The notes under the pieces: model-generated
The model's input: only the letters and a program-made list of their open reading frames with translations
Databases searched by the model: none
Told to the model about the DNA's origin: nothing
Program-made: the position numbers and the translations under genes
In this document: piece by piece, positions 3,442 through 22,967 of the stretch
Layout of the letters: the number at the start of each line of letters is the position of its first letter
Position numbering within the stretch: the stretch's first letter is position 1
Origin: Clostridia bacterium
GTDB lineage: Bacteria > Bacillota > Clostridia > UMGS1883
Length of the DNA stretch: 64,000 nt
NCBI GenBank assembly: GCA_045638945.1
Contig: JAZUCF010000024.1
Location: forward strand, 25,055-89,054
Direction: 5' to 3'

Positions 3442-4307
3442 AATATATCCGACAGGTTACTTTGTATTTTTTCAGCCACGTCGGGCTTGTTCATTGAATA
3501 AACGTGAACATTTGTTATTCCGTTTGCAAAAAGGTCTATTATCTGGTCTGTCGCATAGGCAATCCCCGCTTGCTTCATTGCTTCGGGAGATGAGCCGAAT
3601 TTATCCACCAGACTCTTGAACCTCTGTGGCATAAAGGAGCCTGAAAGCTTTATTGCACGCTCCACCTGATTTGCATTCGTAATAGGCATAATTCCCGGAA
3701 TTATGGGAACAGTTATCCCTGCCTCGCGTATTTTATAGAGGAAATTATAGAGCAAGTTGTTATCGAAAAACATCTGGGTTGTAAGGAAAGAGCAGCCCGC
3801 ATCCACCTTTTCCTTAAGATACTTAATATCTTCTTTCTGATTAGTGCTTTCGGGATGGACTTCGGGATAGCATGCACCGCCTATACAAAAGTCGGCACCG
3901 CTTTCTTTGATATCACGAATAAGGTCTATTGCATGGGTATAGTCCCAGGTACTTCTGTCGCTTTCCATAAGCTCAGGCGTCAAATCTCCCCTGAGAGCCA
4001 TCACATTTTCAATACCTGCCTCTTTCATTTGCTCAATCTTACGGCGGACGGTTTCCTTTGTGGAGGAAACGCATGTAAGATGGGCGAGAGTGGGAACATT
4101 ATACTGCTCTTTTATGTTCTTCGCAATTTCAAGAGTGTATTTGCTTGTGCCGCCGCCTGCTCCGTATGTAACGCTCATAAAAGACGGTCTTAATTTTGCA
4201 ATTTCCTCCGTAGCAGTTTTTACGCTTTCAAAAGCTGTATCCGTTTTCGGTGGAAAAACCTCAAAGGAAAGTGAAAACCTTTCTGAAAAAAGCGTGCTTA
4301 GTTTCAT
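3432..4307 (-). CDS. metF: 5,10-methylenetetrahydrofolate reductase
   Basis: FSLSFEVFPPKT and TYGAGGGT motifs. Start at MKLSTLF (4307) has an AGGAA RBS; the longer ORF start at 4430 lacks one. Confidence 0.85.
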   Translation of the reverse strand: MKLSTLFSERFSLSFEVFPPKTDTAFESVKTATEEIAKLRPSFMSVTYGAGGGTSKYTLEIAKNIKEQYNVPTLAHLTCVSSTKETVRRKIEQMKEAGIENVMALRGDLTPELMESDRSTWDYTHAIDLIRDIKESGADFCIGGACYPEVHPESTNQKEDIKYLKEKVDAGCSFLTTQMFFDNNLLYNFLYKIREAGITVPIIPGIMPITNANQVERAIKLSGSFMPQRFKSLVDKFGSSPEAMKQAGIAYATDQIIDLFANGITNVHVYSMNKPDVAEKIQSNLSDILCL

Positions 4308-5837: not shown

Positions 5838-5849
5838 AAGGTGTTACCT

Positions 5850-6563
5850 ATGAAAAGAAATGAATTTATTAATGGAATTAAAGATGGGATTCCCATTTGT
5901 CTGGGCTATTTTTCGGTGTCAATGGCATTTGGAATTGCCGCGGTCAAGGGCGGTATCCCTGCATGGGCGGCAACGCTTACCTCGCTTTCCAATGTGACAA
6001 GTGCAGGCCAGTTTGCAGGGATTAATATAATGCTGGCATTGGGAAGCCTTATCGAGCTTGCAATTACTACGCTTATTATAAACATGCGATATTTCCTTAT
6101 GTCGCTGTCTGTTTCGCAAAAGGTAGATTCTTCAATGAAATTGTGGCAAAGATTTTTAGTGTCATTTGGCATAACGGATGAAATCTTTGCAGTGTCAATG
6201 CGTCATTCCCGACCCCTTACGGCGGTGTATATGGCAGGGCTGATTATAACCCCCGTGATTGGGTGGACGGCAGGAACCCTGACCGGTGCCGTTGCAACTA
6301 AGGTTATGCCTCAGGTGCTTACTTCCGCAATGGGAATTGCCCTTTACGGAATGTTTATCGCAATAATAATTCCCCCTGCAAGGAAAAATATCAAGGTAAT
6401 GACGGCAGTAATTGCATCAATAGGAGCAAGCCTCGTATTTTCATACGCTCCCATTCTTAGGAATATATCAAGCGGATGGGCAATTATTATAATAACGATT
6501 ATTGTCAGTGCTTTTTGTGCTACATTTTTCCCCGTGGAGGAGAAAGGAGGCAGTGATATATGA
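5850..6563 (+). CDS. azlC: AzlC family branched-chain amino acid permease subunit
   Basis: Polytopic membrane protein with AzlC-like N-terminus GIKDGIPICLGYFSVSMAFG; ATG at 5850 preceded by AAAGGTG. Confidence 0.75.
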   Translation: MKRNEFINGIKDGIPICLGYFSVSMAFGIAAVKGGIPAWAATLTSLSNVTSAGQFAGINIMLALGSLIELAITTLIINMRYFLMSLSVSQKVDSSMKLWQRFLVSFGITDEIFAVSMRHSRPLTAVYMAGLIITPVIGWTAGTLTGAVATKVMPQVLTSAMGIALYGMFIAIIIPPARKNIKVMTAVIASIGASLVFSYAPILRNISSGWAIIIITIIVSAFCATFFPVEEKGGSDI

Positions 6564-6871
6564 ACACAACATATATTCTTTTATGTATTGCCGTTATGGC
6601 ATCTGTTACATATCTTATCCGTGCAATCCCCATGGTCGTGTTCCGCAAAAAAATACAAAACCGCTTTGTTGTGTCTTTTCTCTACTATGTGCCATATGTG
6701 GTTTTGGCGGCAATGACGTTCCCCGCCGTGTTTTCAAGTACTTCCTCACCTCTTTCCGCGACGGCAGGCTGCATAGCCGGACTGATTCTTGCGTTTTTTG
6801 ACAGAGGACTTTTAACCGTTGCCGTAGGTGCGGCACTTTCGGCATTTATCACGCAGATAGCAGGCTTTTGA
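6560..6871 (+). CDS. azlD: AzlD branched-chain amino acid transport protein
   Basis: 103-aa hydrophobic protein overlapping the azlC stop by 4 nt, the canonical azlCD arrangement. Confidence 0.7.
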   Translation: MNTTYILLCIAVMASVTYLIRAIPMVVFRKKIQNRFVVSFLYYVPYVVLAAMTFPAVFSSTSSPLSATAGCIAGLILAFFDRGLLTVAVGAALSAFITQIAGF

Positions 6872-6902
6872 TAAAAGAAAAAAGACCTCACTTCGTGAAG
6901 TC

Positions 6903-6990
6903 TTTTATCTTTCTGGTGCAGGTAACAGGACTTGAACCTGCATGAAATTGCTCTCATACGGACCTGAACCGTACGCGTCTGCCAATTCCG
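6903..6990 (-). tRNA. tRNA-Leu (anticodon CAG)
   Basis: Reverse complement reads GCAGGTA acceptor, D-arm, anticodon stem TACGG/CCGTA with loop TTCAGGT (CAG), long variable arm, T-arm CAGGTTCAAGTCCTG and a 3' CCA encoded; 88 nt. Confidence 0.85.
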
Positions 6991-7091
6991 CCATACCTGC
7001 ATATTTGATACTTTGATATTATACATCATAAATAATTGAAAATCAAGTGTTTTTTGGGAAAATATTTACCTGAAAGAGGGAGTAAAAACAT

Positions 7092-7120
7092 TTGACACAT
7101 TTTACAAGCTGTGGTATAAT
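7092..7120 (+). promoter_or_regulatory. SigA-type promoter of the pyr operon (TTGACA-17-TGgTATAAT)
   Basis: Consensus -35 and extended -10 with 17-bp spacing, 30 bp upstream of the pyrC start. Confidence 0.6.
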
Positions 7121-7149
7121 ACATAAGAATAAATTAACAGGAGGACACC

Positions 7150-8412
7150 ATGCGATACAGTATTAAAAATGCCACAGTTCTAACTGAAAACGGTTTTGTA
7201 AAAACTGATATCAATATTGACAACGGGATAGTTGTTTCTATCGGCGGCGGTGCTCTTTCTGACGCTATGGTTTTCGATTTTAATAATTGTTTTATTTTCC
7301 CCGGTTTTGCTGATGTACATGTGCATTTGCGAGAGCCGGGTTTTTCATATAAAGAAACAATTAAATCGGGAACAGCCGCTTGTGCACGTGGAGGATATAC
7401 GGATGTTTGCACCATGCCAAATCTTAACCCCGTTCCCGACAGTGTAGAAAATATGAAAGTGCAGACGGATATTATTTCCCGCGATGCCCTCATAGGCGTT
7501 CATCCTTTCGGGGCTTTGACCGTGGGAGAAAAAGGGGAGACTCTTTCTGATATTGAATCCCTTTCATCTGTAGCAGTCGGCTTTTCCGATGACGGACGTG
7601 GAGTGCAGAGCGATGATATGATGCGTCAGGCAATGGAGCTCGTCAAGAATAATAATAAGATAATATCTGCTCATTGCGAAGTGAATGAGCTTCTTTTAGG
7701 AGGATATATACGTGACGGTGTTTACAGCAAAAATCACGGTCATAAAGGAATCCCCCCCGAAAGTGAATGGAAAATGGTTGAGCGTGACCTTAAGCTTGCA
7801 GAAGAAATCGGCGTGAAGTATCACATCTGCCACGTTTCCACAAAAGAAAGCGTAAGGCTGATTGCCGAAGCTAAAAAACGCGGTGTTGATGTAACAGCAG
7901 AAACTGCACCTCACTACCTGATTCTTACGGAAAATGACCTTCAGGAACACGGACGCTTTAAAATGAATCCCCCCTTGGGAAGCGAGCTTGACAGGGAGGC
8001 ACTTATAGAAGCTGTTCTTGACGGAACAATTGAAATGATTGCCACAGACCACGCACCACACAGTGCAGAGGAAAAGGGTAAAGGTCTTGAAAAGAGTATG
8101 ATGGGTGTTGTCGGCATAGAATCGGCATTTGCACTGATGTATACTCATTTTGTAAAAACGGGAAAGATGACTCTTGAGCATCTTGTAAACCTTCTCGTAA
8201 AGAATCCCAGAGAGCGTTTTAACCTTGGAAAAGGCGTGATTAAAGAGGGAGAGAAAGCTGACTTTACGGTGTTTAACCTTGAGGAAAGCTATGATATAAA
8301 CCCCGACGAATTCCTGTCTATGGGAAGAAGTACTCCCTTTGAGGGAGAAAAGGTCTGGGGCAGATGTAAGATGACTGTGGCAAACGGCGAAATTGTATGG
8401 AAGGAGATATAA
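7150..8412 (+). CDS. pyrC: Dihydroorotase
   Basis: DVHVHLREPG metal-binding motif and amidohydrolase fold; first gene of the pyr operon. Confidence 0.9.
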   Translation: MRYSIKNATVLTENGFVKTDINIDNGIVVSIGGGALSDAMVFDFNNCFIFPGFADVHVHLREPGFSYKETIKSGTAACARGGYTDVCTMPNLNPVPDSVENMKVQTDIISRDALIGVHPFGALTVGEKGETLSDIESLSSVAVGFSDDGRGVQSDDMMRQAMELVKNNNKIISAHCEVNELLLGGYIRDGVYSKNHGHKGIPPESEWKMVERDLKLAEEIGVKYHICHVSTKESVRLIAEAKKRGVDVTAETAPHYLILTENDLQEHGRFKMNPPLGSELDREALIEAVLDGTIEMIATDHAPHSAEEKGKGLEKSMMGVVGIESAFALMYTHFVKTGKMTLEHLVNLLVKNPRERFNLGKGVIKEGEKADFTVFNLEESYDINPDEFLSMGRSTPFEGEKVWGRCKMTVANGEIVWKEI

Positions 8413-8413
8413 C

Positions 8414-9151
8414 ATGAAGCAAAGTATTTTTGAAATAGTTTCAAATAAAATGCTTGCAGACATCACATACGAAATGGTACTTCGCGGCGATTGCTCGGAT
8501 ATTACAAAGCCGGGGCAGTTTGTAAATATTAAGCTTGACGGATTTTTCCTTCGCCGTCCCATTTCGGTATGTAACAGCAAGGACAATCTTCTTACAATCA
8601 TCTACAAGGTTGTGGGAAAGGGAACAGAGGTTATGGCAGAAATGAAGGCAGGCGAAAAGCTTGATATTCTGACAGGCCTTGGTAATGGCTATGATATTGA
8701 TAAAAGCGGAGATAAGCCTCTTCTTGTAGGAGGCGGTGCAGGCGTACCCCCCATGTATATGCTGGCTATAGAGCTTTTATCACAGGGGAAGACTCCTACG
8801 GTAGTGCTTGGCTTTAACAAAAAGAGCGAGGTTTTCTATGAAGAAGAATTCAAGGCTCTCGGCATCAATACGGTGGTAACAACTGCCGACGGAAGCTACG
8901 GCATAAAGGGATTTGTTACCGATGCAATAAAGGATATTGAATATACATACTTTTTCACGTGCGGTCCGGAGCCTATGTTAAAGGCACTGTATGACAACAC
9001 AAACACAAGCGGTCAGCTCAGCTTTGAGGCACGAATGGGCTGTGGTTTTGGTGCTTGTATGGGCTGTACCTGTGAAACCCTTTACGGAAATAAGAGAATT
9101 TGTAAGGATGGACCTGTTCTTGTAAAGGAGGAAGTAAAATGGGCAAACTGA
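8414..9151 (+). CDS. pyrK: Dihydroorotate dehydrogenase electron-transfer subunit
   Basis: FAD/NAD-binding fold with C-terminal 2Fe-2S Cys cluster (CGFGACMGCTC); GGAG RBS before the ATG at 8414. Confidence 0.85.
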   Translation: MKQSIFEIVSNKMLADITYEMVLRGDCSDITKPGQFVNIKLDGFFLRRPISVCNSKDNLLTIIYKVVGKGTEVMAEMKAGEKLDILTGLGNGYDIDKSGDKPLLVGGGAGVPPMYMLAIELLSQGKTPTVVLGFNKKSEVFYEEEFKALGINTVVTTADGSYGIKGFVTDAIKDIEYTYFFTCGPEPMLKALYDNTNTSGQLSFEARMGCGFGACMGCTCETLYGNKRICKDGPVLVKEEVKWAN

Positions 9152-10050
9152 GCGTTAACTTAAGCGGACTTAACCTTGATAATCCGATTATCCCTGCAAG
9201 CGGTACATTCGGATTTGGTTACGAGTTTAGTGAGTATTATGATATAAATATATTGGGAAGTATTTCTCTTAAGGGAACAACACGTGACCCACGTTACGGA
9301 AATCCCCTCCCCAGAATAGCGGAATGCTCAAGCGGTATGCTTAATGCCGTGGGACTTCAGAATCCTGGGGTTGAAAAGGTTATTTCCGAAGAACTTCCCA
9401 AGCTTCGTAAGTGCTTTAATAAAAAAGCTGTTGCAAATGTCAGCGGATTTTCTCTTGAGGACTACGTTTATACCTGTGAAAAAATGGACAAGCAGGACGA
9501 GGTGGGAATCCTTGAGGTAAATATAAGCTGTCCCAATGTCAAGCATGGCGGAATGAGCTTTGGTACAAGCCCCGATAGTGCGGCGGAAATTACCCGTGCG
9601 GTAAAAAGCGTTACCACAAAGCCCGTTTACATAAAGCTTTCCCCCAATGTGACGGACATCGTTTCCATTGCAAAGGCGTGTGAGGAAGCAGGTGCGGACG
9701 GCATTTCGATGATTAATACGCTACTCGGTATGCGTATCAATCTTAAAAACAGAAAGCCCATACTCTTTAATAAATCAGGCGGATTTTCGGGCAGTGCGAT
9801 TTTCCCTGTTGCCCTCTCCATGGTTTACAGAGTGTATGAGGCAGTAAATATCCCCATCATCGGTATGGGCGGTGTAACAACTGCGGAGGATGTTATCGAA
9901 ATGATGCTTGCAGGTGCAACGGCTGTACAGGTCGGTGCGGCAAACCTCATAGAGCCGTACGCATGTAAGAACATTATCGAAGAACTGCCAAAGGCTATGG
10001 AAAAATATAATATAGAATCTTTAGAAAGTATAATCGGAGGTGCTCACTAA
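9139..10050 (+). CDS. pyrD: Dihydroorotate dehydrogenase (class 1B) catalytic subunit
   Basis: [15 protein letters not shown] and TIM-barrel DHOD motifs; overlaps the pyrK stop. Confidence 0.9.
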
Positions 10051-10748
10051 TGGGTAAGGATGTAATCGTAGCATGTGACTTTGCGTCAAAGCACGCACTT
10101 GTAGAATTTCTCGACAAGTTTTCGGGCAGAAAGCCTTTTGTAAAAATTGGTATGGAGCTTTTCTATGCGGAAGGACCCGAAATTGTAAAGGCAGTAAAGG
10201 AAAGAGGACATAAGATTTTCCTCGACCTTAAGCTTTGCGATATTCCCAACACCGTAAAAAAATCCATGAAGGTTCTCTCAAATCTTGATGTTGATATGAC
10301 AAACCTTCATGCATTCGGAACAAAGGAAATGATGAAAGCCGCAATAGAGGGCTTAACACGCGAAGACGGAACACGCCCCATTCTTATTGCTGTAACACAG
10401 CTTACTTCCACAAGCGAAGAAAGAATGAAAAACGACCTTCTTATAGATGCACCTTTGGCAGAGGTTGTTGAGCATTACGCAAAGTGTGCAGCAGAAAGCG
10501 GACTTGACGGCGTTGTATGCTCTCCTCACGAGGCATCAAGGGTTAAAGAGGTTTGCGGCAAGAACTTTGTGACAGTTACCCCCGGAATCCGCTTTGCAGA
10601 CAGTGCGGCAGACGATCAGGTAAGAATTATGACCCCTGAAAAAGCAAAGAGTGTAGGAAGTGACTATATCGTTGTAGGTAGACCCATCACAGCGGCAGAG
10701 GACCCTGTAGCCGCATATGAAAGATGCGTAAGAGAATTTGTCGACTAA
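10050..10748 (+). CDS. pyrF: Orotidine 5'-phosphate decarboxylase
   Basis: [10 protein letters not shown] motif (the catalytic DxKxxD). Confidence 0.9.
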
Positions 10749-10784
10749 TAGTAAGCCACAGGCTTAAAGAAAGGATAGATAAAA

Positions 10785-11417
10785 ATGAAAGAATTAATTG
10801 CAAAAGACTTACTTAAAATCAAAGCAGTATTTTTAAGCCCCGACGAGCCTTTTACATGGGCAAGCGGAATTAAAAGCCCTATTTATTGTGACAACCGTCT
10901 TACCCTTACAGCACCCGAAGTAAGAACAGACGTTGAAAAAAGCCTTGCCGAGGTTGTAAAGACACATTACCCCGAAGCACAGGTTCTTATGGGTACATCT
11001 ACAGCAGGTATTGCCCATGCGGCAATTACTGCGCATCTTCTTGATATGCCCATGGGTTATGTAAGAAGTGGCGCAAAAGACCACGGCAGACAGAATCAGA
11101 TTGAAGGAAAGCTTGAAAAGGGCGACAAGGTTGTAGTTATCGAAGACCTTATCTCCACAGGCGGAAGCGTTATCGAGGTTGTAGATGCGCTTAGAGAAGC
11201 AGGTGCAGAAGTTTTAGGCATTGCTTCAATCTTTACATACGGCATGCAGAAAGGTCTTGACAGACTCTCTGCGGCAAACGTAAAGAATATCAGCCTTACA
11301 GACTTTGACACAATTGTTGAGGTTGCGGCTAAGGAAAATTATATTAAGGCAGAGGACAAAGAGCGTCTTATCAAATTCCGCAATAACCCTTCCGATGAAA
11401 GCTGGATAAAAGCATAA
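10785..11417 (+). CDS. pyrE: Orotate phosphoribosyltransferase
   Basis: PRTase motif VVVIEDLISTGGS. Confidence 0.9.
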   Translation: MKELIAKDLLKIKAVFLSPDEPFTWASGIKSPIYCDNRLTLTAPEVRTDVEKSLAEVVKTHYPEAQVLMGTSTAGIAHAAITAHLLDMPMGYVRSGAKDHGRQNQIEGKLEKGDKVVVIEDLISTGGSVIEVVDALREAGAEVLGIASIFTYGMQKGLDRLSAANVKNISLTDFDTIVEVAAKENYIKAEDKERLIKFRNNPSDESWIKA

Positions 11418-11452
11418 AACTACAGCCTAATTTTACGGAAAGGATGATATAA

Positions 11453-12367
11453 ATGAAAGATTTAATCGACATTTTGGACCTTAGCCTCCCGGAAATAGAC
11501 AAGCTTATAGAGGTTGCAAACGACATTATCGAAAATCCCGAAAACTACAGGGAAAAGTGTAAATACAAAAAGCTTGCCACTCTTTTCTTTGAACCCTCTA
11601 CCCGTACAAGGCTCAGCTTTGAAGCGGCTATGTACGAGCTTGGAGGTAACGTTCTGGGATTTTCCGAAGCACAGTCAAGCTCTGCGGCAAAAGGGGAGAG
11701 TGTGTCCGATACTGTGCGTACTGTAGAGGCATATGCCGATATTATTGCTATGCGTCATCCTAAGGAGGGTGCTCCCACAGTTGCGGCGGAAAAGACGCAG
11801 ATTCCCATTATCAATGCAGGTGACGGCGGACATAATCATCCTACGCAGACACTTACCGACCTTCTTACAATTAAGAGGGAAGTGGGAAGGCTTGACAACC
11901 TCACAATCGGTCTTTGCGGTGACCTTAAGTTCGGTAGAACCGTTCATTCCCTCATTCAGGCAATGGTTCGTTACGATAATATCAAGTTTATTATGATTTC
12001 GCCCAAGGAGCTTAAGCTTCCTGAATATCTCATAAACGAGGTTCTTGTTAAGAAGAATATTGAATTTGTTGAAACTGAAAGCTTAGAAGAATCAATGCCG
12101 GAACTTGACATTTTGTATATGACCCGTGTACAGAGAGAACGATTCTTCAACGAAGCCGACTATGTTCGACTGAAGGACACATATATCCTTACTCCCGATA
12201 AGCTTGAACATGCAAAACCCACCATGCGAGTTCTTCATCCGCTTCCCAGAGTAAACGAAATTTCCGTTGAAGTGGATAAGGATGAGAGGGCATGCTATTT
12301 CAGGCAGGCGAAAAACGGAAAGTATATCAGAATGGCACTCATTCTGAAGCTTCTCGGAATTGAGTAA
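11453..12367 (+). CDS. pyrB: Aspartate carbamoyltransferase catalytic subunit
   Basis: STRTR carbamoyl-phosphate-binding motif and HPTQ. Confidence 0.9.
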
Positions 12368-12380
12368 AGGGGGCGTAGTT

Positions 12381-12800
12381 ATGCATATTGATGAAATTGT
12401 AAACGGTATTGTTATCGACCATATTGCGGCAGGAAAAAGCATGGAGATTTATAATCTTTTAAACCTTGACCAGCTTGAATGTTCTGTTGCAATTATAAAA
12501 AACGTACACAGCAAGAAAATGGGCAAAAAGGATATCATCAAAATCGATGAAGCCCTCGATGTTAATCTCGACGCATTGGGCTATATTGATAACGGTATCA
12601 CCATAAACACCATTGAAAACGGTGTTAAAACAAACAAACGCCACTGCGAGCTTCCCGAAAGGATAGTAAATGTGGTTAAATGTAAAAACCCCAGATGCAT
12701 CACATCTGTTGAGCAGGAAATTGACCACATCTTCAAGCTTACAGACCGCGAAAACAAGGTTTACAGATGTATCTATTGCGAAATGAAGGCAAAAAACTGA
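12381..12800 (+). CDS. pyrI: Aspartate carbamoyltransferase regulatory subunit
   Basis: C-terminal Zn-binding CxxC...CxxC (CKNPRC...CIYCE); ATG at 12381 after an AAAGGGGG RBS. Confidence 0.85.
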   Translation: MHIDEIVNGIVIDHIAAGKSMEIYNLLNLDQLECSVAIIKNVHSKKMGKKDIIKIDEALDVNLDALGYIDNGITINTIENGVKTNKRHCELPERIVNVVKCKNPRCITSVEQEIDHIFKLTDRENKVYRCIYCEMKAKN

Positions 12801-12815
12801 CAGGAGTGAAATGTT

Positions 12816-13778
12816 ATGGGTATGAGATTTATGAGGTTCCCCGGAGGCAGGGCAAAGGCACTGACCTTCAGCTATGATGACGGTGTGCATCCCGACAGAC
12901 GGCTTATTGAAATTTTTGATAAGCATGGAATGAAAGGTACATTCAATATTTGCAGCGGTCGTTTTGCCCCCGAAGGAACGGTGTATCCTCCCGAAGCAAT
13001 AAGCGGAGCCCTTCCGAAAAGCGAAGCATATGCACTTTATGCCAATAGTCCTCACGAGGTGGCGATTCACGGCTACACGCATCAGTATATGACAAATCTT
13101 CCCACCTCACAGATGGTGTCGGAAATTCTTGACGACAGAAAAAACTTAGAAGAAATGTTCGGCAGAAGAATCAACGGTGGTGCGTATCCCTACGGAAACT
13201 ATAATGACGATGTTGTAGAGGCACTTCGCCTTGCAGGCATTAAATATTGCAGAACGACACTTTCTACGGAGCAGTTTAATATTCCCACAGATTGGCTTAG
13301 ACTTCCTGCGACATGTCATCATAAAAATCCACGGCTTATGGAGCTGGCAGAGCAGTTTCTTGAACATAACATTGACAGACATCCGAGGCTTTTCTACGTG
13401 TGGGGACACAGCTATGAATTTAACCAAAAGCAAAACTGGAATGTGATTGAAGATTTCTGCGAAAAAATGTCCGACAATGAAGAAATCTGGTATGCTACAA
13501 ATATAGAAATATACGACTATATTGAAGCATATAACCGCCTTGAATATTATGCCGACGGCACAAAGGTATATAATCCTACTCTTTATGAGCTGTGGGTATA
13601 TCAGGACGGCGTTACATATAAAATCCCGTCGGGTGCCACAGTTGAAATTGTGGATAAGCTGATTGTAAGTGAAGACAGGAAAACTATAGAAAACCCATCC
13701 GATATGACAGTATGGTTTCACTATAATAAGAAACACCACGAAATCCCCGCAGGAAAAACAGTGCATATAGAAGAATAA
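12816..13778 (+). CDS. Polysaccharide deacetylase family protein (NodB-homology domain)
   Basis: FSYDDG...HGYTH motifs typical of carbohydrate esterase family 4. Confidence 0.6.
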   Translation: MGMRFMRFPGGRAKALTFSYDDGVHPDRRLIEIFDKHGMKGTFNICSGRFAPEGTVYPPEAISGALPKSEAYALYANSPHEVAIHGYTHQYMTNLPTSQMVSEILDDRKNLEEMFGRRINGGAYPYGNYNDDVVEALRLAGIKYCRTTLSTEQFNIPTDWLRLPATCHHKNPRLMELAEQFLEHNIDRHPRLFYVWGHSYEFNQKQNWNVIEDFCEKMSDNEEIWYATNIEIYDYIEAYNRLEYYADGTKVYNPTLYELWVYQDGVTYKIPSGATVEIVDKLIVSEDRKTIENPSDMTVWFHYNKKHHEIPAGKTVHIEE

Positions 13779-13783
13779 AATTT

Positions 13784-13816
13784 AAGGCTGAGTGATTTGT
13801 TTCGCTCAGCCTTTTA
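13784..13816 (+). terminator. Rho-independent terminator (GGCTGAG-N12-CTCAGCC + TTTT)
   Basis: Hairpin followed by a T-run after the deacetylase gene. Confidence 0.55.
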
Positions 13817-13910
13817 AAATTTGATGCGTTGAATATTGAAATGTCCGGCAAAGCTTGATATAATAAAAGTGCGGATTACCGCACTAAGATTATAAAGGAG
13901 GCGAAAGCAT

Positions 13911-16784
13911 ATGAAAAAACTTATAAGCTTGATTTTGGTATTGTGTATGGTGATGAGCTTTGAAAGCTTTGCCCTTGCCGATGAAACTGAAAAGACACAG
14001 GCATCGGCATTTACAACCGTTAAGATTCCGTTCCCCGACAGTATTGAAGACCGCAACTCGTGGATTACACATGCAAGGTATGTAGACAGCGGAGAAATCA
14101 TTCCGCTATCACTTGTATATGAGGGGAATGTGTACGCAACAGTCCCCGTGGAGAATAAGGACCGCGGAATTGAGGCTTTCGTTACCGAAGCAGTGGAATT
14201 TACCGATGTTGATGATTCGGATTTTGATTTTCATGACGTTAAAATGTTGTCACGTGTCGGTGTTGTTCGTGGAAATGACAAGGGCGAGGCAAATATTCAT
14301 GATAACGTAACCCGTGCCGAAGCGGTTGCTATGGTAATGCGTTTCATGGGGCTTGAAGGTCTGGCATGGGAATATACAGATGAAATTTCAGGTAGATATA
14401 CTCAAACCGTTACCTTTGAGGATGTTTCCAAAAAAGACTGGTTTTATTATGTGGTGAATTATGCCCGAGCCTGCGGAATTATTGAGGGCGACAGTCCGAC
14501 AGTCTTTTCTCCTTACAGAAATGTAACGAGGGAAGAAATTACGGCTATGGTTGCAAGAGCCTTGCAGTATGCAAATCTAAGGTGCTTTGTTCGTCAAAAC
14601 GAAAACTTTGCCGACAAAGAAAATATATCCGATTGGGCGAAAGAAGCGTACGATTATCTCGGATATAACTGCATAGTGGACTATCCGCAGAATACGGAAA
14701 ATATTGACTGGGATAACCCCGAACAGTTTCTATATCCGCAGAAAGCGGCTACAAGAGCAAACGTTGCATATATCTTAAATAATGTTCAGGACGAGTGCCA
14801 GATGTATGCATCGGAGCTTGCAAAGATGTTCGGCTTTGACAAAGAAATGCCCAAAATTGATGGCTCAACCTCAACATATCCTTTTACGCAGGTGGTTTAC
14901 AATACGCTTTTCCGTAACGGGCAGACACACCCCGATTATCCGCAAAAACATTCAAAGAGCCATGCTTCATATCAGCGGCTGATAAACGGAGAGGTTGATA
15001 TGCTTTTTGCCTCGGTTTATCCTGCGAGTGATATTCTGAAAATGGCAGAAGAAAAAGGCGTGGAGCTGGAGCTTATCCCAATTGCGTATGATGCGATGAT
15101 ATTCTTTACCAATAAGGATAATCCGATAACGGGGCTTACTAAGGAGCAGATAACTGATATCTATGTGAATGATGCCTATGATAACTGGTCGGAGGTAGGG
15201 GGAAGCGATGCACTTCTTTATCCTTATTGCAGAAATAACGACAGCGGCAGTCATGCACAGATGGAAAAGCATTTCCTTAAAGGAAATGAGATACATAAGG
15301 AAGTACAGAGAGAAACCTCCAGAACAATGTCGGATATTTTAACCGATGTTATAGCGGCAAAAACTGACAGTCCGTTAGGCTATGGACTTGGCTACAGCAT
15401 TTATTATTACTATCATAACGTAGATGCGGTGCTCGACACAAAGCGGCATCTAAAGCTTCTCGCAATCGATGGTGTGATGCCTACTGATGATACTATTGCA
15501 GACGACTCATATCCGCTTTCCAATAACACCTATGTAGTACTCCGAAAAGATACTCCTGCAGACGCACCTGCAAGGAAAATGGCAGAATTTATGCTCACAG
15601 AGGCAGGTCAGCAGTGCGTTGAAGGTGCAGGATTCGGACGACTTAAAAAGACTGTGAAAATTTCAGACGATATGCTCTTTGCGGATAAGATAAACGTACA
15701 GATGCCACAGGATAAAAACTACATGTTTTCCCCATTGTCGATTAAAATGGCTTTATCCCTTGCGGCAAACGGGGCATCGGGCGAAACACAGCAGCAGATA
15801 TTAAATGCGTTGGGAGTTACAAATCTTGATGAATTTAATACACTTTCAAAGGATTTGATAGAAAGATATTCCAAGGCGGATATTTTAAGCCTTAATATTG
15901 CAAATTCAATCTGGATAAACAAGGATAAAACCTCTCAGCAATTCAGCAATGATTTTAAGGGCATTGCTAAGGAGTTTTATAAGGCTGATGCAAATACAGT
16001 CGCCGATGCGTTGGCAGTAAGCGAAATCAATTCGTGGGTAAATGACAAAACGAATGGCAAAATCCCGACTATAATAGATAGCACAGACGATTTTTGGGCA
16101 ATGCTTATTAATGCCATTTACTTTAAAGGTGCATGGCTTGATGAGTTTAATGTAAATGCAACCAAGCCCGACGTATTTAATAATGCAGACGGAACAAAGA
16201 TTACAACCGATTTTATGAATACTACGGACTGGATACCCTATGCCGAAACAAAGTCGGTGCAGATGATAGAGCTTCCTTATCAAAACCGTGTGGAAAAATT
16301 CTCGGACAGCGGAGAATATCTTGATACAGAGGTTTATAAAGACCTTGATGTAAGTATGTATCTTATTATGGCAGATGGCGGCATTAATGCCCAGCAGGAA
16401 TTAACTGCTGCAATAAACGATGATGCTTTTAAGAGCACATACATCAAGCTGGCTATGCCTAAATTCAAGATTGAGTATTCTGCACAGATGAATGACATGC
16501 TTATGAATATGGGCATAACCACAGCATTTGATGAGGGAGAGGCAGACTTTACCAAGATGTTTTATAACGGAAATATGTTTTTTACCGATATGCTTCACAA
16601 AACCTTTATAAGTGTGGACGAAAAGGGAACCGAAGCAGCTGCAGTTACTTCAATCGGCATGGGAGGCTCATCACTTCCGCCCGAGCCTGTCGAGCTTAGG
16701 TTCAATAAACCGTTCTATTTTGCAATCCGTGACAACACAAGCGGCGAAACACTCTTTATGGGACGCTATGCCTTTGCAAATTAA
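13911..16784 (+). CDS. Secreted multidomain protein: signal peptide + 3 SLH domains + PstS-like periplasmic-binding domain + C-terminal serpin
   Basis: N-terminal hydrophobic leader. Three SLH-like repeats (FHDVKMLSRVGVVRG.., FEDVSKKDWFYYVVNYARACGII.., FADKENISDWAKEAYDYLG..). PBP-like-2 signature (GSTSTYP..IAYDAMIFFTNKDNPITGLTKEQITDIY..NDSGSHAQME). Serpin domain from MFSPLSIKMALSLAANGASGETQQQILNALG to the hinge/RCL EKGTEAAAVTSIGMGGSSLPPEP and FNKPFYFAIRD. Single uninterrupted reading frame. Confidence 0.7.
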   Translation: MKKLISLILVLCMVMSFESFALADETEKTQASAFTTVKIPFPDSIEDRNSWITHARYVDSGEIIPLSLVYEGNVYATVPVENKDRGIEAFVTEAVEFTDVDDSDFDFHDVKMLSRVGVVRGNDKGEANIHDNVTRAEAVAMVMRFMGLEGLAWEYTDEISGRYTQTVTFEDVSKKDWFYYVVNYARACGIIEGDSPTVFSPYRNVTREEITAMVARALQYANLRCFVRQNENFADKENISDWAKEAYDYLGYNCIVDYPQNTENIDWDNPEQFLYPQKAATRANVAYILNNVQDECQMYASELAKMFGFDKEMPKIDGSTSTYPFTQVVYNTLFRNGQTHPDYPQKHSKSHASYQRLINGEVDMLFASVYPASDILKMAEEKGVELELIPIAYDAMIFFTNKDNPITGLTKEQITDIYVNDAYDNWSEVGGSDALLYPYCRNNDSGSHAQMEKHFLKGNEIHKEVQRETSRTMSDILTDVIAAKTDSPLGYGLGYSIYYYYHNVDAVLDTKRHLKLLAIDGVMPTDDTIADDSYPLSNNTYVVLRKDTPADAPARKMAEFMLTEAGQQCVEGAGFGRLKKTVKISDDMLFADKINVQMPQDKNYMFSPLSIKMALSLAANGASGETQQQILNALGVTNLDEFNTLSKDLIERYSKADILSLNIANSIWINKDKTSQQFSNDFKGIAKEFYKADANTVADALAVSEINSWVNDKTNGKIPTIIDSTDDFWAMLINAIYFKGAWLDEFNVNATKPDVFNNADGTKITTDFMNTTDWIPYAETKSVQMIELPYQNRVEKFSDSGEYLDTEVYKDLDVSMYLIMADGGINAQQELTAAINDDAFKSTYIKLAMPKFKIEYSAQMNDMLMNMGITTAFDEGEADFTKMFYNGNMFFTDMLHKTFISVDEKGTEAAAVTSIGMGGSSLPPEPVELRFNKPFYFAIRDNTSGETLFMGRYAFAN

Positions 16785-16826
16785 TACGACTGAATATAGA
16801 AACATTATCTGAAAAATCAATGTATT

Positions 16827-16865
16827 ATTTCCTGCTCCTTTTCGGGGCAGGAAATATTTTTTTTG
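16827..16865 (+). terminator. Rho-independent terminator
   Basis: ATTTCCTGC-N12-GCAGGAAAT followed by a 9-nt T-run. Confidence 0.6.
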
Positions 16866-16873
16866 CAAAACTG

Positions 16874-16903
16874 TTGACAATCGCTTCTACACGGTGTATA
16901 ATA
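16874..16903 (+). promoter_or_regulatory. SigA-type promoter (TTGACA-18-TATAAT) with an embedded TACA-cgg-TGTA dyad (candidate BlaI/CopY-type operator)
   Basis: Consensus hexamers; the palindrome TACACGGTGTA (16888-16898) lies in the spacer overlapping -10, as in autoregulated blaI/mecI/copY promoters. Confidence 0.5.
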
Positions 16904-16937
16904 AAAACAAGATGTAGAAGCGAAGGAGGAAACTACT

Positions 16938-17306
16938 ATGAAAATATCAGAAACAGAAATGGAAATTATGAGGATAATCTGGGATAAGGGCGATAAGGTA
17001 ACTACAAGTGAGCTTGCCGAGAAAATGCCCGATAAGAAGCTTACGACTATTTCCACCCTTGCAGGAAGGCTTATTGATAAGGGCTGCCTTAAATCTGAAA
17101 AGATTGGTCGCAGTCATGTTCACGAATATGAGGCGATTATTTCCGAACAGGAATATCAGGCAATGCAAACAAAGGAATTTGTAAGGTCAATTCATCGTGG
17201 TAGTGCAAAAAGCCTTATTTCAGCACTTTTCCGTGATGAAGAATTTACCAAGGAGGATATTGATGAGCTTAGAAGGTTCATAGAAAAGCAGGGTGATGAA
17301 TTATGA
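16938..17306 (+). CDS. BlaI/MecI/CopY family transcriptional repressor
   Basis: 122 aa; winged-helix N-terminus MKISETEMEIMRIIWDKGDKVTTSEL typical of the penicillinase-repressor family. Confidence 0.8.
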   Translation: MKISETEMEIMRIIWDKGDKVTTSELAEKMPDKKLTTISTLAGRLIDKGCLKSEKIGRSHVHEYEAIISEQEYQAMQTKEFVRSIHRGSAKSLISALFRDEEFTKEDIDELRRFIEKQGDEL

Positions 17307-19717
17307 TGGAATCGGTAATTATATCAACCGTTGCAGGCTCTGTCGTTTGCAGTGCATTGCTGATATTTAAAAACAAAATATTATCGTTTTTTGGGGGTAA
17401 AGCACTATACTACATAAGCTTACTTGCAATGCTTATCTTTATTCTTCCCATAAATATCGGTGAATTATCACTTCCCAAAGCACCCATACATCAGGAAGTT
17501 AATGTAACAGAAGTAAATACAGAAGCTCCTGTTAAAAATACAGATAATGCTTTGGTGCAAACAACACAGAGGGCTCCGCAGGAGCCGCAGCATAAGGAAC
17601 TGCCAAAGCCGTCAAATATTGTAAGAAGGTCTAACCCCATTACTGTGCAGGAGATTTTAATATCGGTATGGCTTTTAGGTTTTGTTGCTTCAATATGCAG
17701 ATATTTTATATCATATTTCAGATTCAAGAAGAAAATCTGTGCTTTTGATACACACGAAAATATAAACGGTATAAAGGTAATTAAAAGCCCATTGATAACC
17801 TCTCCCATGATTTTCGGATTTTTCAGACCAACGCTTGCAATTCCCGAAATTGAAATGAACGAGGGCGATTACAACCTTGCAATTAAGCATGAAATGGTGC
17901 ATTATAAGCATCATGATTCATGGATTAAGCTTTTTGCAGTAATCGTTAATTCGATTCACTGGTTTAACCCCATTACATATTTTATGGTGAATTTAATAGG
18001 CGAGGCGTGCGAATATGCCTGTGATGAGCAAGTAACAAAGGAAATGGATTTGACAGACAAGAAGCAGTACAGCACTATGATACTCTCTATGGTATGCCAG
18101 TCTTCACCTGCTCTGTCAAGCAATATGGTTAAAAACAAAAAACAGCTTAAACGGAGGTTTGAGATGATTATGAAAAAGAAAAGCTTCAGCGTTTTTAGAA
18201 CAGCATTATGCACAGTGCTGATACTTACATTAACCTGTGGAAGTATCGTATTGGCAAATAAGGTTGCACCTTTAATTTCTTCCGCCTTGAAGGATGATTA
18301 TGTTTATATAACAACATGGGGAGATAACGGTTACGGTAAAGGCTACAATGAATTCGTCCCCGTAGAGAAGAACGGAGAATACTATCTGCCGCTGAGGGAG
18401 TTTCTGAATAAATCAGATGTTGAAAACGATAAAATCAAATATGACAATGGTGTAATCACGATTGACATCTGGACAAATGAAATGACTGTGGTTTCTGTAG
18501 CTGTTAGGCCAAGCGGCAGCGATCCCACTTTACATGAAAAAGAGAAAAGCAAGACACTCCCTGCCGAATATTCATGGTCAACAAGCTGCAAAATCGGCAG
18601 TAAAGAAGTAGAAATTGCAGGAGAAAAATACACATTATCCAATGCTCCTTATCTTGAGAACGGAATTACATATGTTCCCTACGAGTATCTGAAAAAATTA
18701 AAGCTGTACGAAAATAAGTACACAAGTGCAAATATAGCAAAGCACAGAGGAAGAACAACCTCAAAATTTGATTCAATGATGCTGTTCGGCTTTGACAGTA
18801 CAAACGCACAGTACTATACCGACTATATTCAAATGGAAAATTTGCTTGGCAGAGAGCCGTTTAATTCAGTTTCAAGCATGACATATAATGCCAACGCAAA
18901 AATATCAAAAACAGGCTACCGCACCGAATTTGAAGCTTCATATGATTATTTTGAACTGAATGATGTCGAAAAAGAAGGGCATGTGAAAATAAAGCTGAAC
19001 AAGGTAACCCGTATTTATAGCAAAGGCAGTGACATAGAGGGCTTGTTTACTGTAGTAATTGACGGCAAAACTGTTTACGATAACAAAAAAGGCAATATTA
19101 TACAGCTTCCCATTCCGGCAGGTGACGGAGTGCTGGATTTTTCAAATACCAAGGTCAAAATCGGTGACTTGAATATTGATATGTTCTTTACCGGCTTCAA
19201 TACTGTATCTGACGAATATGATGAAAGAGCAAGGGAAGTAGGCAAAATGAGTGAGCTTCCCGATACTGTCAAAAAATTTATCGTTCCGTCTGCCGTTAAG
19301 CTAAACGGCAAACAGGTTAGCCGTGGTAACAAGACACAAAGCAATTTCTGGTATAACAAGGAAAAGAAGCTTATTGATGTAAACATACAGTTTGACAACT
19401 ACAATGGCGGTAACGGTGCAGACATGGAATCTTACAGAATACACACCGAAGTAAATTCAAAAATGACGGTTATTGATGAAAATACCATCTCAGCAGAATT
19501 GTATTTTACACAGGGGAATAACAATCGTATTGACTCTTTTGATGCAATTGTTATGTTTTTACCCGACGGAGGGTTTGATCTGAAATCCACCGACGGCAAG
19601 TATATTATTATAGGAACGGCAAAGGAATTTGTTCCGCATTGGGAATGGTCGGAGGAAGAAAAGAACGCTCCTGTTCCATCGGTGTTCATGATTAAAGAGC
19701 AAAACGAAGCAGAATAA
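17303..19717 (+). CDS. BlaR1-like M56 family membrane metalloprotease/signal transducer with a large non-PBP extracellular domain
   Basis: TM segments plus HEMVHYKHHD (HExxH of peptidase M56). ~500-aa C-terminal region with copper-amine-oxidase-N-like repeats (YYLPLREFL.., ITYVPYEYLKKL) instead of a penicillin-binding sensor. Overlaps the blaI stop (ATGA). Confidence 0.7.
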   Translation: MMESVIISTVAGSVVCSALLIFKNKILSFFGGKALYYISLLAMLIFILPINIGELSLPKAPIHQEVNVTEVNTEAPVKNTDNALVQTTQRAPQEPQHKELPKPSNIVRRSNPITVQEILISVWLLGFVASICRYFISYFRFKKKICAFDTHENINGIKVIKSPLITSPMIFGFFRPTLAIPEIEMNEGDYNLAIKHEMVHYKHHDSWIKLFAVIVNSIHWFNPITYFMVNLIGEACEYACDEQVTKEMDLTDKKQYSTMILSMVCQSSPALSSNMVKNKKQLKRRFEMIMKKKSFSVFRTALCTVLILTLTCGSIVLANKVAPLISSALKDDYVYITTWGDNGYGKGYNEFVPVEKNGEYYLPLREFLNKSDVENDKIKYDNGVITIDIWTNEMTVVSVAVRPSGSDPTLHEKEKSKTLPAEYSWSTSCKIGSKEVEIAGEKYTLSNAPYLENGITYVPYEYLKKLKLYENKYTSANIAKHRGRTTSKFDSMMLFGFDSTNAQYYTDYIQMENLLGREPFNSVSSMTYNANAKISKTGYRTEFEASYDYFELNDVEKEGHVKIKLNKVTRIYSKGSDIEGLFTVVIDGKTVYDNKKGNIIQLPIPAGDGVLDFSNTKVKIGDLNIDMFFTGFNTVSDEYDERAREVGKMSELPDTVKKFIVPSAVKLNGKQVSRGNKTQSNFWYNKEKKLIDVNIQFDNYNGGNGADMESYRIHTEVNSKMTVIDENTISAELYFTQGNNNRIDSFDAIVMFLPDGGFDLKSTDGKYIIIGTAKEFVPHWEWSEEEKNAPVPSVFMIKEQNEAE

Positions 19718-19771
19718 ATTTATTGAAAAACCGTAACTCAAACAAAACACTTTTGTAAAATAATGCAATAA

Positions 19772-19796
19772 AAAAGAAGGCTATGCCTTCTTTTTT
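19772..19796. terminator. Rho-independent terminator (GAAGGC-tat-GCCTTC + T6)
   Basis: Hairpin with A-run upstream and T-run downstream, between convergent genes. Confidence 0.6.
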
Positions 19797-19802
19797 ACAG
19801 TA

Positions 19803-19887: not shown

Positions 19888-20997
19888 TTACTTAATTATA
19901 ATCATTTCTGAAAGGGTAAGCAGTATTAAAAATCCGAAATTAAACGCCGTAAACATTCCTATATACTGCATTGCCCTTTTGGGATTATACTTTGTGTATT
20001 CACGGAAAGTGATAAGACTTGCCAAGGAAGCAATCAGCGTTCCCACACCGCCGATATTCACCCCTAAAAGAAGCTCTCGGTAGTTGTTTGTGAACTGCGA
20101 CAGCAGTATTGCAGAGGGAACATTGCTTATAATCTGACAGGACAGAATACTAAAGAGCAGCGTGCTTTTACCTAATAGATATTCAAATAAATTCTGAACG
20201 ACTTCAATCCTTGCCATATTTCCTGCAAATATAAAGAAAAATACAAAGGTCAGAAGCAGGGGATAGTCCACCGCTTTAAGTGCTTTTCTGTCCATAAAGA
20301 AGAGTACGGGTGGGATAATAATAAGCCCCGTTATATAAGGAATTGTCCTGAAAACAATCGCGATTGAAAGAATAAAGAGAAGTAAATAGATGAAAGTTCT
20401 CTTTTTGCTAAGCTTGGGCGAAGCATCGTTTATTCTAAGCGGTTCGGGGTGAACAAATATGAAGCAGCAAATGGTTATGATGCTTATTGCAATAACAAAA
20501 GGTGGTGCCATTATTCCCATAAATTCATCGGTGGGAATATTGAATTTGGTGTAAAGAAAAAGATTCTGCGGATTTCCGAAAGGTGTGAGCATACCGCCTA
20601 AATTTGCGGCAATGTTCTGCATAATAAATGTAAAGCACATATACTTTTCTTTATGTGTTGAGCTTAGCACAAAGTAGCCCAGCGGAAGAAAGGTTAAAAG
20701 TGCCATATCATTTGCAATCAGCATTGAGCCGATAAAGGTTATGTATATAATTGCGGTGATTGCCGCACGTGCATTTTTAAAGCATTGTACAATTTTCTGT
20801 GCCAATATATAAAAGAAATTAATATTTTTAAGTGCACACACAACGGCAAGCACACAAAAAAGACAGGTAAGCGACTTAAAATCAAAATATCCGATATATT
20901 CTTTGTCTATTCCCACTATAATGCTTGTAATAAGAGCTGCAAAGAATGCAACAGATAAAACAGCATTGTTTTTCATAAAAGAGGCGATTTTACTCAT
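19888..20997 (-). CDS. Polytopic membrane transporter (ArsB/NhaD-like ion-transporter superfamily, putative)
   Basis: 369 aa, ~10-12 TM segments, PFGNPQNL motif; family assignment is tentative. Confidence 0.45.
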   Translation of the reverse strand: MSKIASFMKNNAVLSVAFFAALITSIIVGIDKEYIGYFDFKSLTCLFCVLAVVCALKNINFFYILAQKIVQCFKNARAAITAIIYITFIGSMLIANDMALLTFLPLGYFVLSSTHKEKYMCFTFIMQNIAANLGGMLTPFGNPQNLFLYTKFNIPTDEFMGIMAPPFVIAISIITICCFIFVHPEPLRINDASPKLSKKRTFIYLLLFILSIAIVFRTIPYITGLIIIPPVLFFMDRKALKAVDYPLLLTFVFFFIFAGNMARIEVVQNLFEYLLGKSTLLFSILSCQIISNVPSAILLSQFTNNYRELLLGVNIGGVGTLIASLASLITFREYTKYNPKRAMQYIGMFTAFNFGFLILLTLSEMIIIK

Positions 20998-21162
20998 AAT
21001 GCATCTCCCTTAAAAATTGCATAGCTCCGCTATTATAACATCCGAAGAAAATATTGTCAAATAAAAACTAAAAAAATAGAAAAAATTTGAAAAATACACT
21101 TTAATATTAAGAAAAATTGTGGTATACTAATTTCTGTATTATTAATTCGAGGTGAGAAGGGA

Positions 21163-22714: not shown

Positions 22715-22909
22715 TTACTTCATAGACTGCTCGTAAGCGGAAATCATCTTTTTAACCATCTGTCCGCCAACGCTTCCGTTTTCACGGCTTGTCTTGTCGC
22801 CGTTGTAACCCTGGTTAAGTGTTACGCCTACTTCGTTAGCAGCTTCCATTTTGAAACGGTTAAGTGCCTCTCTTGCTTCGGGTACGAGAACTCTTGATCT
22901 TCTACTCAT
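22715..22909 (-). CDS. Alpha/beta-type small acid-soluble spore protein
   Basis: 64 aa; MEAANEVGV..LNQGYNGDKTSRENGSVGG matches the SASP germination-protease site and DNA-binding region; GGAG RBS 9 nt before MSRRS. Confidence 0.8.
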   Translation of the reverse strand: MSRRSRVLVPEAREALNRFKMEAANEVGVTLNQGYNGDKTSRENGSVGGQMVKKMISAYEQSMK

Positions 22910-22967
22910 TTTCATTTTCTCCTTTTTTATTTTATATCTATATTTTCTGCAAGCTCAAAGCTTACGT

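Follow-up and report, generated by a model that had tools for sequence, protein, structure and literature searches.

A 64,000-nucleotide stretch of contig JAZUCF010000024.1 from a Clostridia bacterium (hereafter the window) contains a two-gene operon specifying a BlaI/MecI-family repressor and an 804-residue membrane metalloprotease of the M56 family. We consider it probable that this module is a self-contained, negatively autoregulated signaling unit of the BlaI/BlaR type, belonging to the class which does not sense beta-lactams. Its promoter is overlaid by a double operator which is conserved in related loci, the protease retains the catalytic residues of BlaR1, and its large outer part possesses no penicillin-binding domain. 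An earlier note on this DNA had suggested a proteolytic switch with a non-beta-lactam sensor; such a predicted switch is favored by homology and gene order, by the conserved catalytic residues, and by phylogenetic footprinting.

Operon and double operator

The two genes form a compact unit (16826–19798; Table 1) with intrinsic terminators at both ends. Its boundaries are set by a promoter which matches the consensus at 12 of 12 positions, by the flanking terminators, and by the overlap of the repressor stop codon with the protease start codon (ATGA). The promoter begins 18 bases past the terminator of a serpin gene, and the module lies directly downstream of that gene, as the earlier note had it. 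The second terminator is common to the operon and to a convergent gene for a CitMHS-family transporter. The promoter had been described as TTGACA-18-TATAAT; both hexamers are indeed perfect, but the spacer measures 17 nt. Based upon the position of the -10 box, transcription presumably starts at about 16909.

Superimposed on this promoter is a near-palindrome consisting of two dyads with centers 18 bp apart. Its outer arms, TCGCTTCTACA (16881–16891) and TGTAGAAGCGA (16913–16923), are 100% complementary and are separated by 21 nt. The TACA-N3-TGTA palindrome recognized in the earlier note is real, being TACACGGTGTA (TACAcggTGTA) at 16888–16898, but it represents only half of the operator. It had been placed in the promoter spacer; this is where dyad 1 lies, though the motif also reaches the -10 box, since its TGTA shares the first two bases of that box. 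Taken alone, the 11-nt motif is within chance expectation (two matches in the window against 0.72 expected; two were reached in 16 of 100 shuffles). The operator is significant because of the perfect 11-nt inverted repeat and its conservation, and not because of the 11-mer itself. An RNA element in the leader was considered and ruled out. There is no Rfam family within 16826–19798, and the left arm of the repeat lies 5' of the -10 box and therefore outside the transcript.

Fifteen related loci (referred to below by L numbers) were fetched from Clostridia and Oscillospiraceae genomes, mainly animal-gut metagenomes, and four more were taken from metagenome assemblies. The recovered relatives which bear taxonomic labels all come from uncultured animal-gut Clostridia; the family is restricted to uncultured Clostridia, mostly of the animal gut, and is well conserved there. 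In 15 aligned promoters the sequence from the -35 box through the ribosome-binding site, both boxes included, is invariant or nearly so, while the flanks upstream of the -35 box cannot be aligned. What variation exists is found mainly in the two 3-nt dyad spacers (cgg and aga in the window), together with a few scattered substitutions. The footprint is kept even in L013 and L014, whose proteases share only 36% identity with that of the window. Four further loci were read, and three of these keep both dyads in the same layout. L021 (5561–5638) also has this layout, but its operator has three half-site substitutions and falls below the scan threshold.

The innermost half-site base is changed (CGTA for TGTA) in some loci, namely in the L013/L014 and L015 promoters and in L021, and this position therefore tolerates substitution. 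L021 additionally has TGCA for TACA in dyad 1. Leaving L021 aside, the strictly conserved core is CTAC-N5-GTA rather than TACA-N3-TGTA. Two conserved dyads of the TACA/TGTA type, each with a spacing of 3 nt, occupy the spacer, the -10 box and the start, and the repressor is predicted to bind them.

Repressor and membrane protease

The first gene product is a BlaI-family repressor, as the earlier note had stated. It matches PF03965 [1e-25; 90.7 bits against a cut-off of 22.6] over profile positions 1–114 of 115, and its residues 2–117 align with MecI [1sd6, 1okr] and BlaI [1sd4] through both the DNA-binding and dimerization domains. The repressor and MecI/BlaI have in common a T-I-x-T-L-x-x-R-L stretch, which we take to be the recognition helix. 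Repressor identity is 79–96% in related loci whose protease is 36–78% identical.

By E-value the best NCBIfam match of the repressor is the CopY/TcrY model TIGR02698 [4.8e-21], and CopY operators have the same TACA/TGTA core (PMC7253601). One might accordingly propose that this is a CopY-type metal sensor which is released by copper, the M56 gene being incidental. The score against TIGR02698 (75.4 bits) is, however, far under the equivalog cut-off of 121.95, and the only cysteine is C50, leaving none in the C-terminal tail and no CxC...CxC motif. Neither copA nor copZ was annotated in the immediate neighborhoods, and the repressor gene is translationally coupled to the M56 gene in every locus which reaches upstream of the protease gene. 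We reject the metal sensor as exceedingly improbable.

The second gene specifies an M56 metalloprotease with an HEMVH motif (residues 196–200), in agreement with the earlier note. Peptidase_M56 [PF05569, 1.9e-38] covers residues 6–289. The protein has four hydrophobic segments, and its AlphaFold model, with a predicted local distance difference test (pLDDT) score of 76.8, is matched by Foldseek with a probability of 1.00 to the cryo-electron microscopy structures of Staphylococcus aureus BlaR1 [8exs, 8exp]. An exact look-up of the 804-residue protein in the assembly index returned no record.

The BlaR1 catalytic and loop residues whose roles are described in PMC9834060 have counterparts in this protein (Table 1); the register of the autocleavage loop was counted back from the KRR motif of the BlaR1 sequence. 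All of the listed catalytic residues, together with L271, S272, S273, N274, M275, R284 and R285, are invariant in an alignment of 17 sequences. Among 48 homologs (down to 51% identity) H196ExxH200, D205, E237xxxD241, Y256 and R285 are invariant, R284 and S272 are kept in at least 90%, and most of the other loop residues just named are still invariant; the HExxH...E site, upon which the earlier note had made its reading depend, is intact (HEMVH and E237). By analogy with BlaR1, autocleavage would be expected at about N274↓M275.

The first outer loop (residues 56–112, 17468–17638) is long, predicted to be disordered (pLDDT < 50), and only 14–72% identical between lineages. Toward its end, over roughly the last 12 residues, conservation is higher (P101, R108, N111, P112). 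The corresponding loop of BlaR1 docks in the sensor domain.

The sensor half, or outer part, comprises residues 322–804, that is, approximately 480 residues. It had been described as a set of cuAO-N-like repeats. This does not hold, since there is one domain resembling the copper amine oxidase N1 domain, at about residues 333–475 and confined to the first third, followed by about 320 residues without a Pfam family. The match to Cu_amine_oxidN1 [PF07833] gave 7.5e-8 and 32.7 bits against a gathering threshold of 24.2 over profile positions 52–90 of 108; a second Pfam scan found it in two stretches [1.6e-9, 38.1 bits]. Residues 486–804 matched no Pfam family at E ≤ 10. For structure prediction, exact substrings of database proteins were used as input. 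Modeled alone the outer part reached a pLDDT of 84.3, with 85–95 for most of outer domain 1, and a predicted template modeling (pTM) score of 0.76.

A profile of residues 486–804 was compared with 1.84 billion cluster representatives and found 27 proteins at E ≤ 0.001. Nine distant matches of full-length size were tested, and eight of them carry M56, as does every distant full-length relative to which a family could be assigned; a tenth match, P0133, is a cadherin-repeat protein touched only in a short motif. Giant cadherin-repeat proteins (P0133 and similar ones) were set aside, their repeated matches to a stretch of 25–40 residues being regarded as not meaningful. Residues 486–804 thus appear from the sequence comparisons to be an orphan module which, as far as tested, is fused to M56, and we presume that this is the signal-binding module. 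PF07833 domains are frequent in cell-wall hydrolases of Firmicutes (PMC4137172), and one such domain has been examined for a role in homodimerization (PMC10432803). Furthermore, a paralogous protease in L022 combines M56, cuAO-N1 and Peptidase_M23 domains. On these grounds we might suggest that the cuAO-N1-like domain serves as a stalk or dimerizing spacer, signal binding being the task of the distal module.

Foldseek comparison of the outer part with the Protein Data Bank (PDB) returned only weak matches to TbpB/LbpB (E ~1e-3), DUF1849 and lipocalin-like proteins, with a query TM-score of at most 0.17. Since there is no convincing solved relative of this fold, the nature of the cue is a guess, the most likely candidates being a ligand derived from the cell envelope or from the gut. 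A more ambitious proposal is that the beta-rich module is a dedicated receptor for a gut- or host-derived molecule, a sensory input not previously recognized, and that the double operator controls an unlinked regulon across uncultured Oscillospiraceae, perhaps including surface-protein genes in the subclade which bears the serpin. It is prompted by the weak resemblance to TbpB/LbpB lobes and lipocalins, the fusion to M56, and the origin of the relatives in animal-gut Clostridia, and we regard it as speculative and rather unlikely.

Might this nevertheless be a true beta-lactam sensor with an unconventional binding domain? For this one could cite only its family name and the homology seen in the transducer half. 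Pfam found no transpeptidase/class D beta-lactamase-like domain [PF00905] in the M56 protein; the NCBIfam model blaR1_generic is matched only at positions 2–339 of 585, with 92 bits against a cut-off of 400; and structure prediction gives a largely beta-stranded outer part, without a match to the penicillin-binding fold. Pfam annotation revealed no beta-lactamase or penicillin-binding protein (PBP) gene in the immediate neighborhood of any locus examined. The non-PBP sensor of the earlier note is therefore upheld by Pfam, NCBIfam and fold alike, and a beta-lactam cue is most improbable.

A working mechanism for the module can be modeled on the biology of BlaR1/BlaI (PMC9834060) and on the description of the class (PMC13492132). 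Repressor dimers would occupy the two adjacent dyads with their CTACA-N3-TGTA core, four half-sites in all, and block RNA polymerase, dyad 1 covering the spacer and -10 box and dyad 2 the start. The 804-residue partner would span the membrane four times, with its zinc gluzincin domain in the cytoplasm and approximately 480 residues outside. A cue from outside, other than a beta-lactam, would act on the beta-rich module and, as in BlaR1, shift the transmembrane helices to bring about the autocleavage proposed above. The protease would then cut the dimerization helix of the repressor at about A96-L97-F98, which would derepress the operon in a positive feedback, along with any unlinked targets bearing the same operator.

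Table 1. Features of the BlaI/M56 module and its boundaries; positions are those of the window (arrows mark cleaved or candidate bonds)
Feature	Position	Strand	Remarks
Serpin-gene intrinsic terminator, upstream module boundary	16826–16856	+	13-bp stem, then T-run; terminator and inverted-repeat scans
SigA/sigma-70-type promoter	16874–16902	+	TTGACA 16874–16879, 17 nt, TATAAT 16897–16902; 12/12 consensus
Operator, 43-bp near-palindrome	16881–16923	.	centered at 16902; outer arms, a perfect 11-nt inverted repeat
Dyad 1, TTCTACA-cgg-TGTATAA	16885–16901	.	centered at 16893; in promoter spacer, overlaps -10 box; contains TACACGGTGTA
Dyad 2, AAAAACA-aga-TGTAGAA	16903–16919	.	centered at 16911; over inferred start and first transcript bases
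Ribosome-binding site AAGGAGG	16923–16929	+	8 nt 5' of ATG; largely conserved among aligned loci
BlaI/MecI-family winged-helix repressor gene	16938–17306	+	122 aa; PF03965
M56 membrane metalloprotease gene	17303–19717	+	804 aa; PF05569
M56 transducer/protease half of the 804-aa protein	17303–18265	+	transmembrane helices TM1–TM3, outer loop residues 56–112, cytoplasmic gluzincin domain, TM4
HEMVH zinc-binding/catalytic motif, H196 E197 H200	17888–17902	+	equivalent of BlaR1 H201EYAH205
D205 of M56 protein			equivalent of BlaR1 D210
E237-Y-A-C-D241, ExxxD third zinc-ligand motif	18011–18025	+	equivalent of BlaR1 E242xxxD246
Y256 of M56 protein			equivalent of BlaR1 Y261
Candidate autocleavage loop, L271-S-S-N274↓M275-VKNKKQLK-R284-R285	18113–18157	+	aligned to BlaR1 L280-S-H-S283↓F284-NGKKSLLK-R293-R294
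R284/R285 of M56 protein			equivalent of BlaR1 R293/R294
Outer domain 1, copper-amine-oxidase-N1-like "stalk", residues 322–485	18266–18757	+	two half-repeats, variable insert, linker helix
Outer domains 2 and 3, beta-rich, residues 486–804 (~320 residues)	18758–19714	+	without Pfam family
Bidirectional intrinsic terminator	19768–19798	.	A-run, 14-bp stem, T-run; 50 nt past protease stop

Targets and gene neighborhoods

The earlier note had envisaged that further operator sites would define a regulon. A half-site scan of the window and of approximately 240 kb of related loci returned the autoregulatory site only, one operator-like site per locus, at the module's own promoter. Two look-alikes (11 of 14 positions) occur in the window, at 7100–7116 and 34967. 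The former is explained by the extended -10 box TGTGgTATAAT of the promoter of a dihydroorotase-like gene. The latter lies just inside the start of a 300-residue open reading frame (ORF; 34926–35828), near the end of the preceding ORF, and was set aside. The promoter at 7091–7119 (+) reads TTGACA-17-TATAAT with TACAagcTGTG in its spacer, and the dihydroorotase-like gene follows at 7150–8412.

A metagenome-wide scan with the perfect-palindrome operator CGNTTCTACANNNTGTAGAANCG found five loci. Three are terminator-type hairpins, and the other two, on contigs of 54% and 65% G+C (window, 41%), do not resemble the promoter described here; none was accepted as a target. Since there is one operator-like site per locus and the flanking genes vary, the sole supported target is the operon itself.

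One metagenomic contig, L022, carries three tandem BlaI/M56 modules (5636–14390). The second of these specifies the M23-containing protease mentioned above, and its promoter has two CTACA-N2-TGTAG dyads; elements of the CTACA/TGTAG type recur around the promoters of both paralogous modules. Their repressors are 35% and 27% identical to that of the window. The different dyad spacing (N3 versus N2) may keep co-resident paralogous BlaIR systems from cross-reacting, and would then represent an insulation rule against cross-talk.

Several points weigh against the autoregulated signaling unit that we favor. With no second operator in the window or the related loci, it would be a switch acting only upon itself, which has no obvious purpose. 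The dyads are spaced by three nucleotides, not by two as in the canonical BlaI/MecI operator TACA-NN-TGTA (PMC1935004). Opposite N101↓F102, the scissile pair of BlaI/MecI, the repressor has A96-L97, with F98 directly after, so that residue-level conservation of the cleavage site is lacking; the P1' phenylalanine of this site is reported to be almost invariant (PMC9834060). The sensor region has no solved fold relative above the TM-score given earlier. Direct comparison of the N-terminal half with S. aureus BlaR1 by single-sequence phmmer is statistically weak (E ~7), and when a full-length family profile was compared with PDB sequences, nothing but a chance match to RNase H came up; assignment of the family therefore depends upon the Pfam, NCBIfam and Foldseek matches. 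Lastly, the pairing of repressor with DNA and that of protease with repressor are both predictions.

An alternative explanation is that there is no ligand-gated signaling and that the M56 protein is itself the product. Its outer part would be structural, wall-associated or dimerizing, the repressor would hold its level constant by negative autoregulation, and the protease would either turn the repressor over constitutively or act on other substrates. The finding of no target except the operon is in keeping with this, as are the occurrence of PF07833 in cell-wall hydrolases and its examination in homodimerization, the peptidoglycan-hydrolase domain (M23) of the L022 paralogue, and the existence of sensor-less BlaR homologs in mycobacteria and Pseudomonas aeruginosa. 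On the other hand, the conservation of repressor and operator far exceeds that of the outer part, which fits an operator with multiple targets better; the autocleavage loop and catalytic residues are strictly conserved, as one would expect of a regulated switch; and the scan covered only some 300 kb, leaving room for unlinked targets. On balance we think it unlikely that the protein is made for its own sake, and prefer the signaling unit.

The genes flanking the module vary by lineage. They include genes for an MFS transporter, FAD oxidoreductase, Rex-like regulator, response regulator, rhamnosidase, KAP NTPase, YchF, SNF transporter and glycoside hydrolases. Among the immediate neighbors, which are transporter, housekeeping and assorted genes, none is conserved.

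Because a serpin gene adjoins the module in the window, the earlier note had speculated about an envelope-stress circuit of protease and inhibitor, in which the module would sense extracellular proteolysis or the status of the adjacent S-layer-anchored serpin and act in concert with it. The gene (13911–16784) specifies an unusual fusion protein which combines a signal peptide and SLH cell-wall anchor with a PstS-like phosphate-binding domain and a serpin domain; judged by eye from the serpin consensus, its hinge, EKGTEAAAVTS, is presumably of the inhibitory type. A serpin occurs near the module in three of approximately 16 lineages, all of the closer subclade: immediately upstream in the window species (including L001, of the same species), adjoining the module in L002/L003 although the surrounding genes differ, and 1.6 kb upstream in L022. 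The relative in L003 (4506–7130) has SBP_bac_3 as its solute-binding domain, and that in L022 is split into adjacent genes (349–2271 and 2297–4069).

Several observations speak against such a circuit. The serpin gene has its own promoter (13836–13864) and a strong terminator separates it from the module. Neither reading of that promoter nor the half-site scan disclosed a TACA/TGTA dyad or operator-like site there, so that the earlier note was right in seeing no TACA-N3-TGTA site upstream of the serpin; nor is there an operator-like site upstream of the L022 serpin, and in L003 such a site occurs only at the promoter of blaI. Serpin and module are separated in L022 by an ECF sigma/anti-sigma pair. 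No serpin is found nearby in L004–L007, L009–L015, L021, L023 and L024, some of which have 77–78% protease identity. The proximity has the look of synteny left over in a single subclade and not of a functional unit, and a serpin-linked circuit is very unlikely.

In L021 (1–2422) the gene directly upstream of the module specifies an SLH protein which has no serpin domain; genes for an HtrA-like protease (Trypsin and PDZ domains) and for a two-component system are a few kb upstream of the module. This neighborhood is probably coincidental.

Relation to known BlaIR systems

As in the BlaI/BlaR1 and MecI/MecR1 systems of S. aureus and Bacillus licheniformis, a gene for a PF03965 repressor stands beside one for a sensor-protease. 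The M56 protein has in common with BlaR1/MecR1 the four-helix transducer, HExxH and ExxxD motifs, equivalents of D210, Y261, R293 and R294, and a candidate autocleavage loop in the same register; the promoter has dyads with TACA/TGTA-type cores, through which autoregulation is predicted as for BlaI/MecI. Unlike BlaR1/MecR1 the window protein has no penicillin-binding sensor domain; unlike BlaI/MecI its operator spacing is N3 rather than N2 and the N-F scissile pair is replaced by A-L-F; and unlike the Bla/Mec systems there is no beta-lactamase or PBP2a target gene nearby, and the order is blaI followed by blaR in a two-gene operon between terminators. Lacking both the sensor domain and a linked resistance gene, the module is not a true BlaR1/MecR1 system.

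The locus belongs to the non-canonical BlaIR class, which is defined by an M56 protein without a transpeptidase domain within five genes of a BlaI-like repressor; here the two genes overlap. According to a study from 2026, only about 6% of some 15,000 M56 proteins have a transpeptidase domain, so that approximately 94% belong to non-beta-lactam types; they display 254 domain architectures, the commonest being M56 with an unannotated C-terminal region, and 96% are within five genes of a BlaI-like repressor (PMC13492132). Because non-beta-lactam BlaIR systems are already the majority of M56 proteins, the locus is less novel than the earlier note had implied. M56 with Cu_amine_oxidN1 is, however, not among the architectures with at least 100 entries in that survey.

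The CenIR system of Clostridioides difficile, also a member of the Clostridia, likewise pairs an M56 protease lacking a transpeptidase domain with a BlaI-like repressor. The outer tail of CenR is short and mostly unstructured (residues 334–460), whereas that of the window protein, with approximately 480 residues, is confidently folded (pLDDT 84). CenIR has a regulon of about 12 genes which includes a neighboring exported protein; in the window only the operon is supported, and there is no small downstream gene.

Closest in operator layout are BlaI_0696 and BlaI_1845 of Clostridium thermocellum, which are specified by autoregulated BlaI-BlaR1 operons, also in a member of the Clostridia. These paralogues bind as four protomers to two inverted-repeat pairs upstream of their own operons, as found by DNA affinity purification sequencing (DAP-seq) and electrophoretic mobility shift assay (EMSA), and have regulons of one to three operons (PMC8457756). 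Their half-sites, GTCTAT/GACTAT with 5-nt spacing, differ from TTCTACA-N3-TGTAGAA of the window, and binding, which was shown experimentally for C. thermocellum BlaI, is here inferred. The BlaIR systems of Mycobacterium tuberculosis and M. abscessus and PvmSR of P. aeruginosa resemble the module in their intact HExxH/ExxxD motifs and in having no link to beta-lactam resistance (bioRxiv 10.64898/2026.08.03.742534). They lack an outer sensor domain, while that of the window protein is large, conserved and structured.

The family described here is distinguished by an orphan ectodomain which is large and folded, by a double-dyad operator with N3 spacing, and by its restriction to uncultured Clostridia. 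BlaI/BlaR-like pairs are abundant in Firmicutes, yet, beta-lactam resistance apart, a signal or regulon is known for almost none of them. The large folded outer domain is better suited than the CenR tail to ligand screening and structural work, and the operator, resolved to single bases by phylogenetic footprinting, can be used for regulon prediction in complete genomes of the uncultured gut and rumen Oscillospiraceae. Our understanding of this class of switch is unchanged, and the most intriguing aspect of the locus, the link to the serpin, was not upheld.

A few other features of the window may be mentioned. The convergent CitMHS-family transporter gene occupies 19888–20997 (minus strand), and upstream of it, at 21032–21060 (-), is a further promoter matching the consensus at 12 of 12 positions, in this case with a TG extension. 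The sole Rfam match at the gathering threshold in the window is a tRNA gene at 6917–7000 (-). A gene for an alpha/beta-type small acid-soluble spore protein is present at 22715–22915 (-) [PF00269, 2.6e-30], and the host organism is therefore presumably a spore former.

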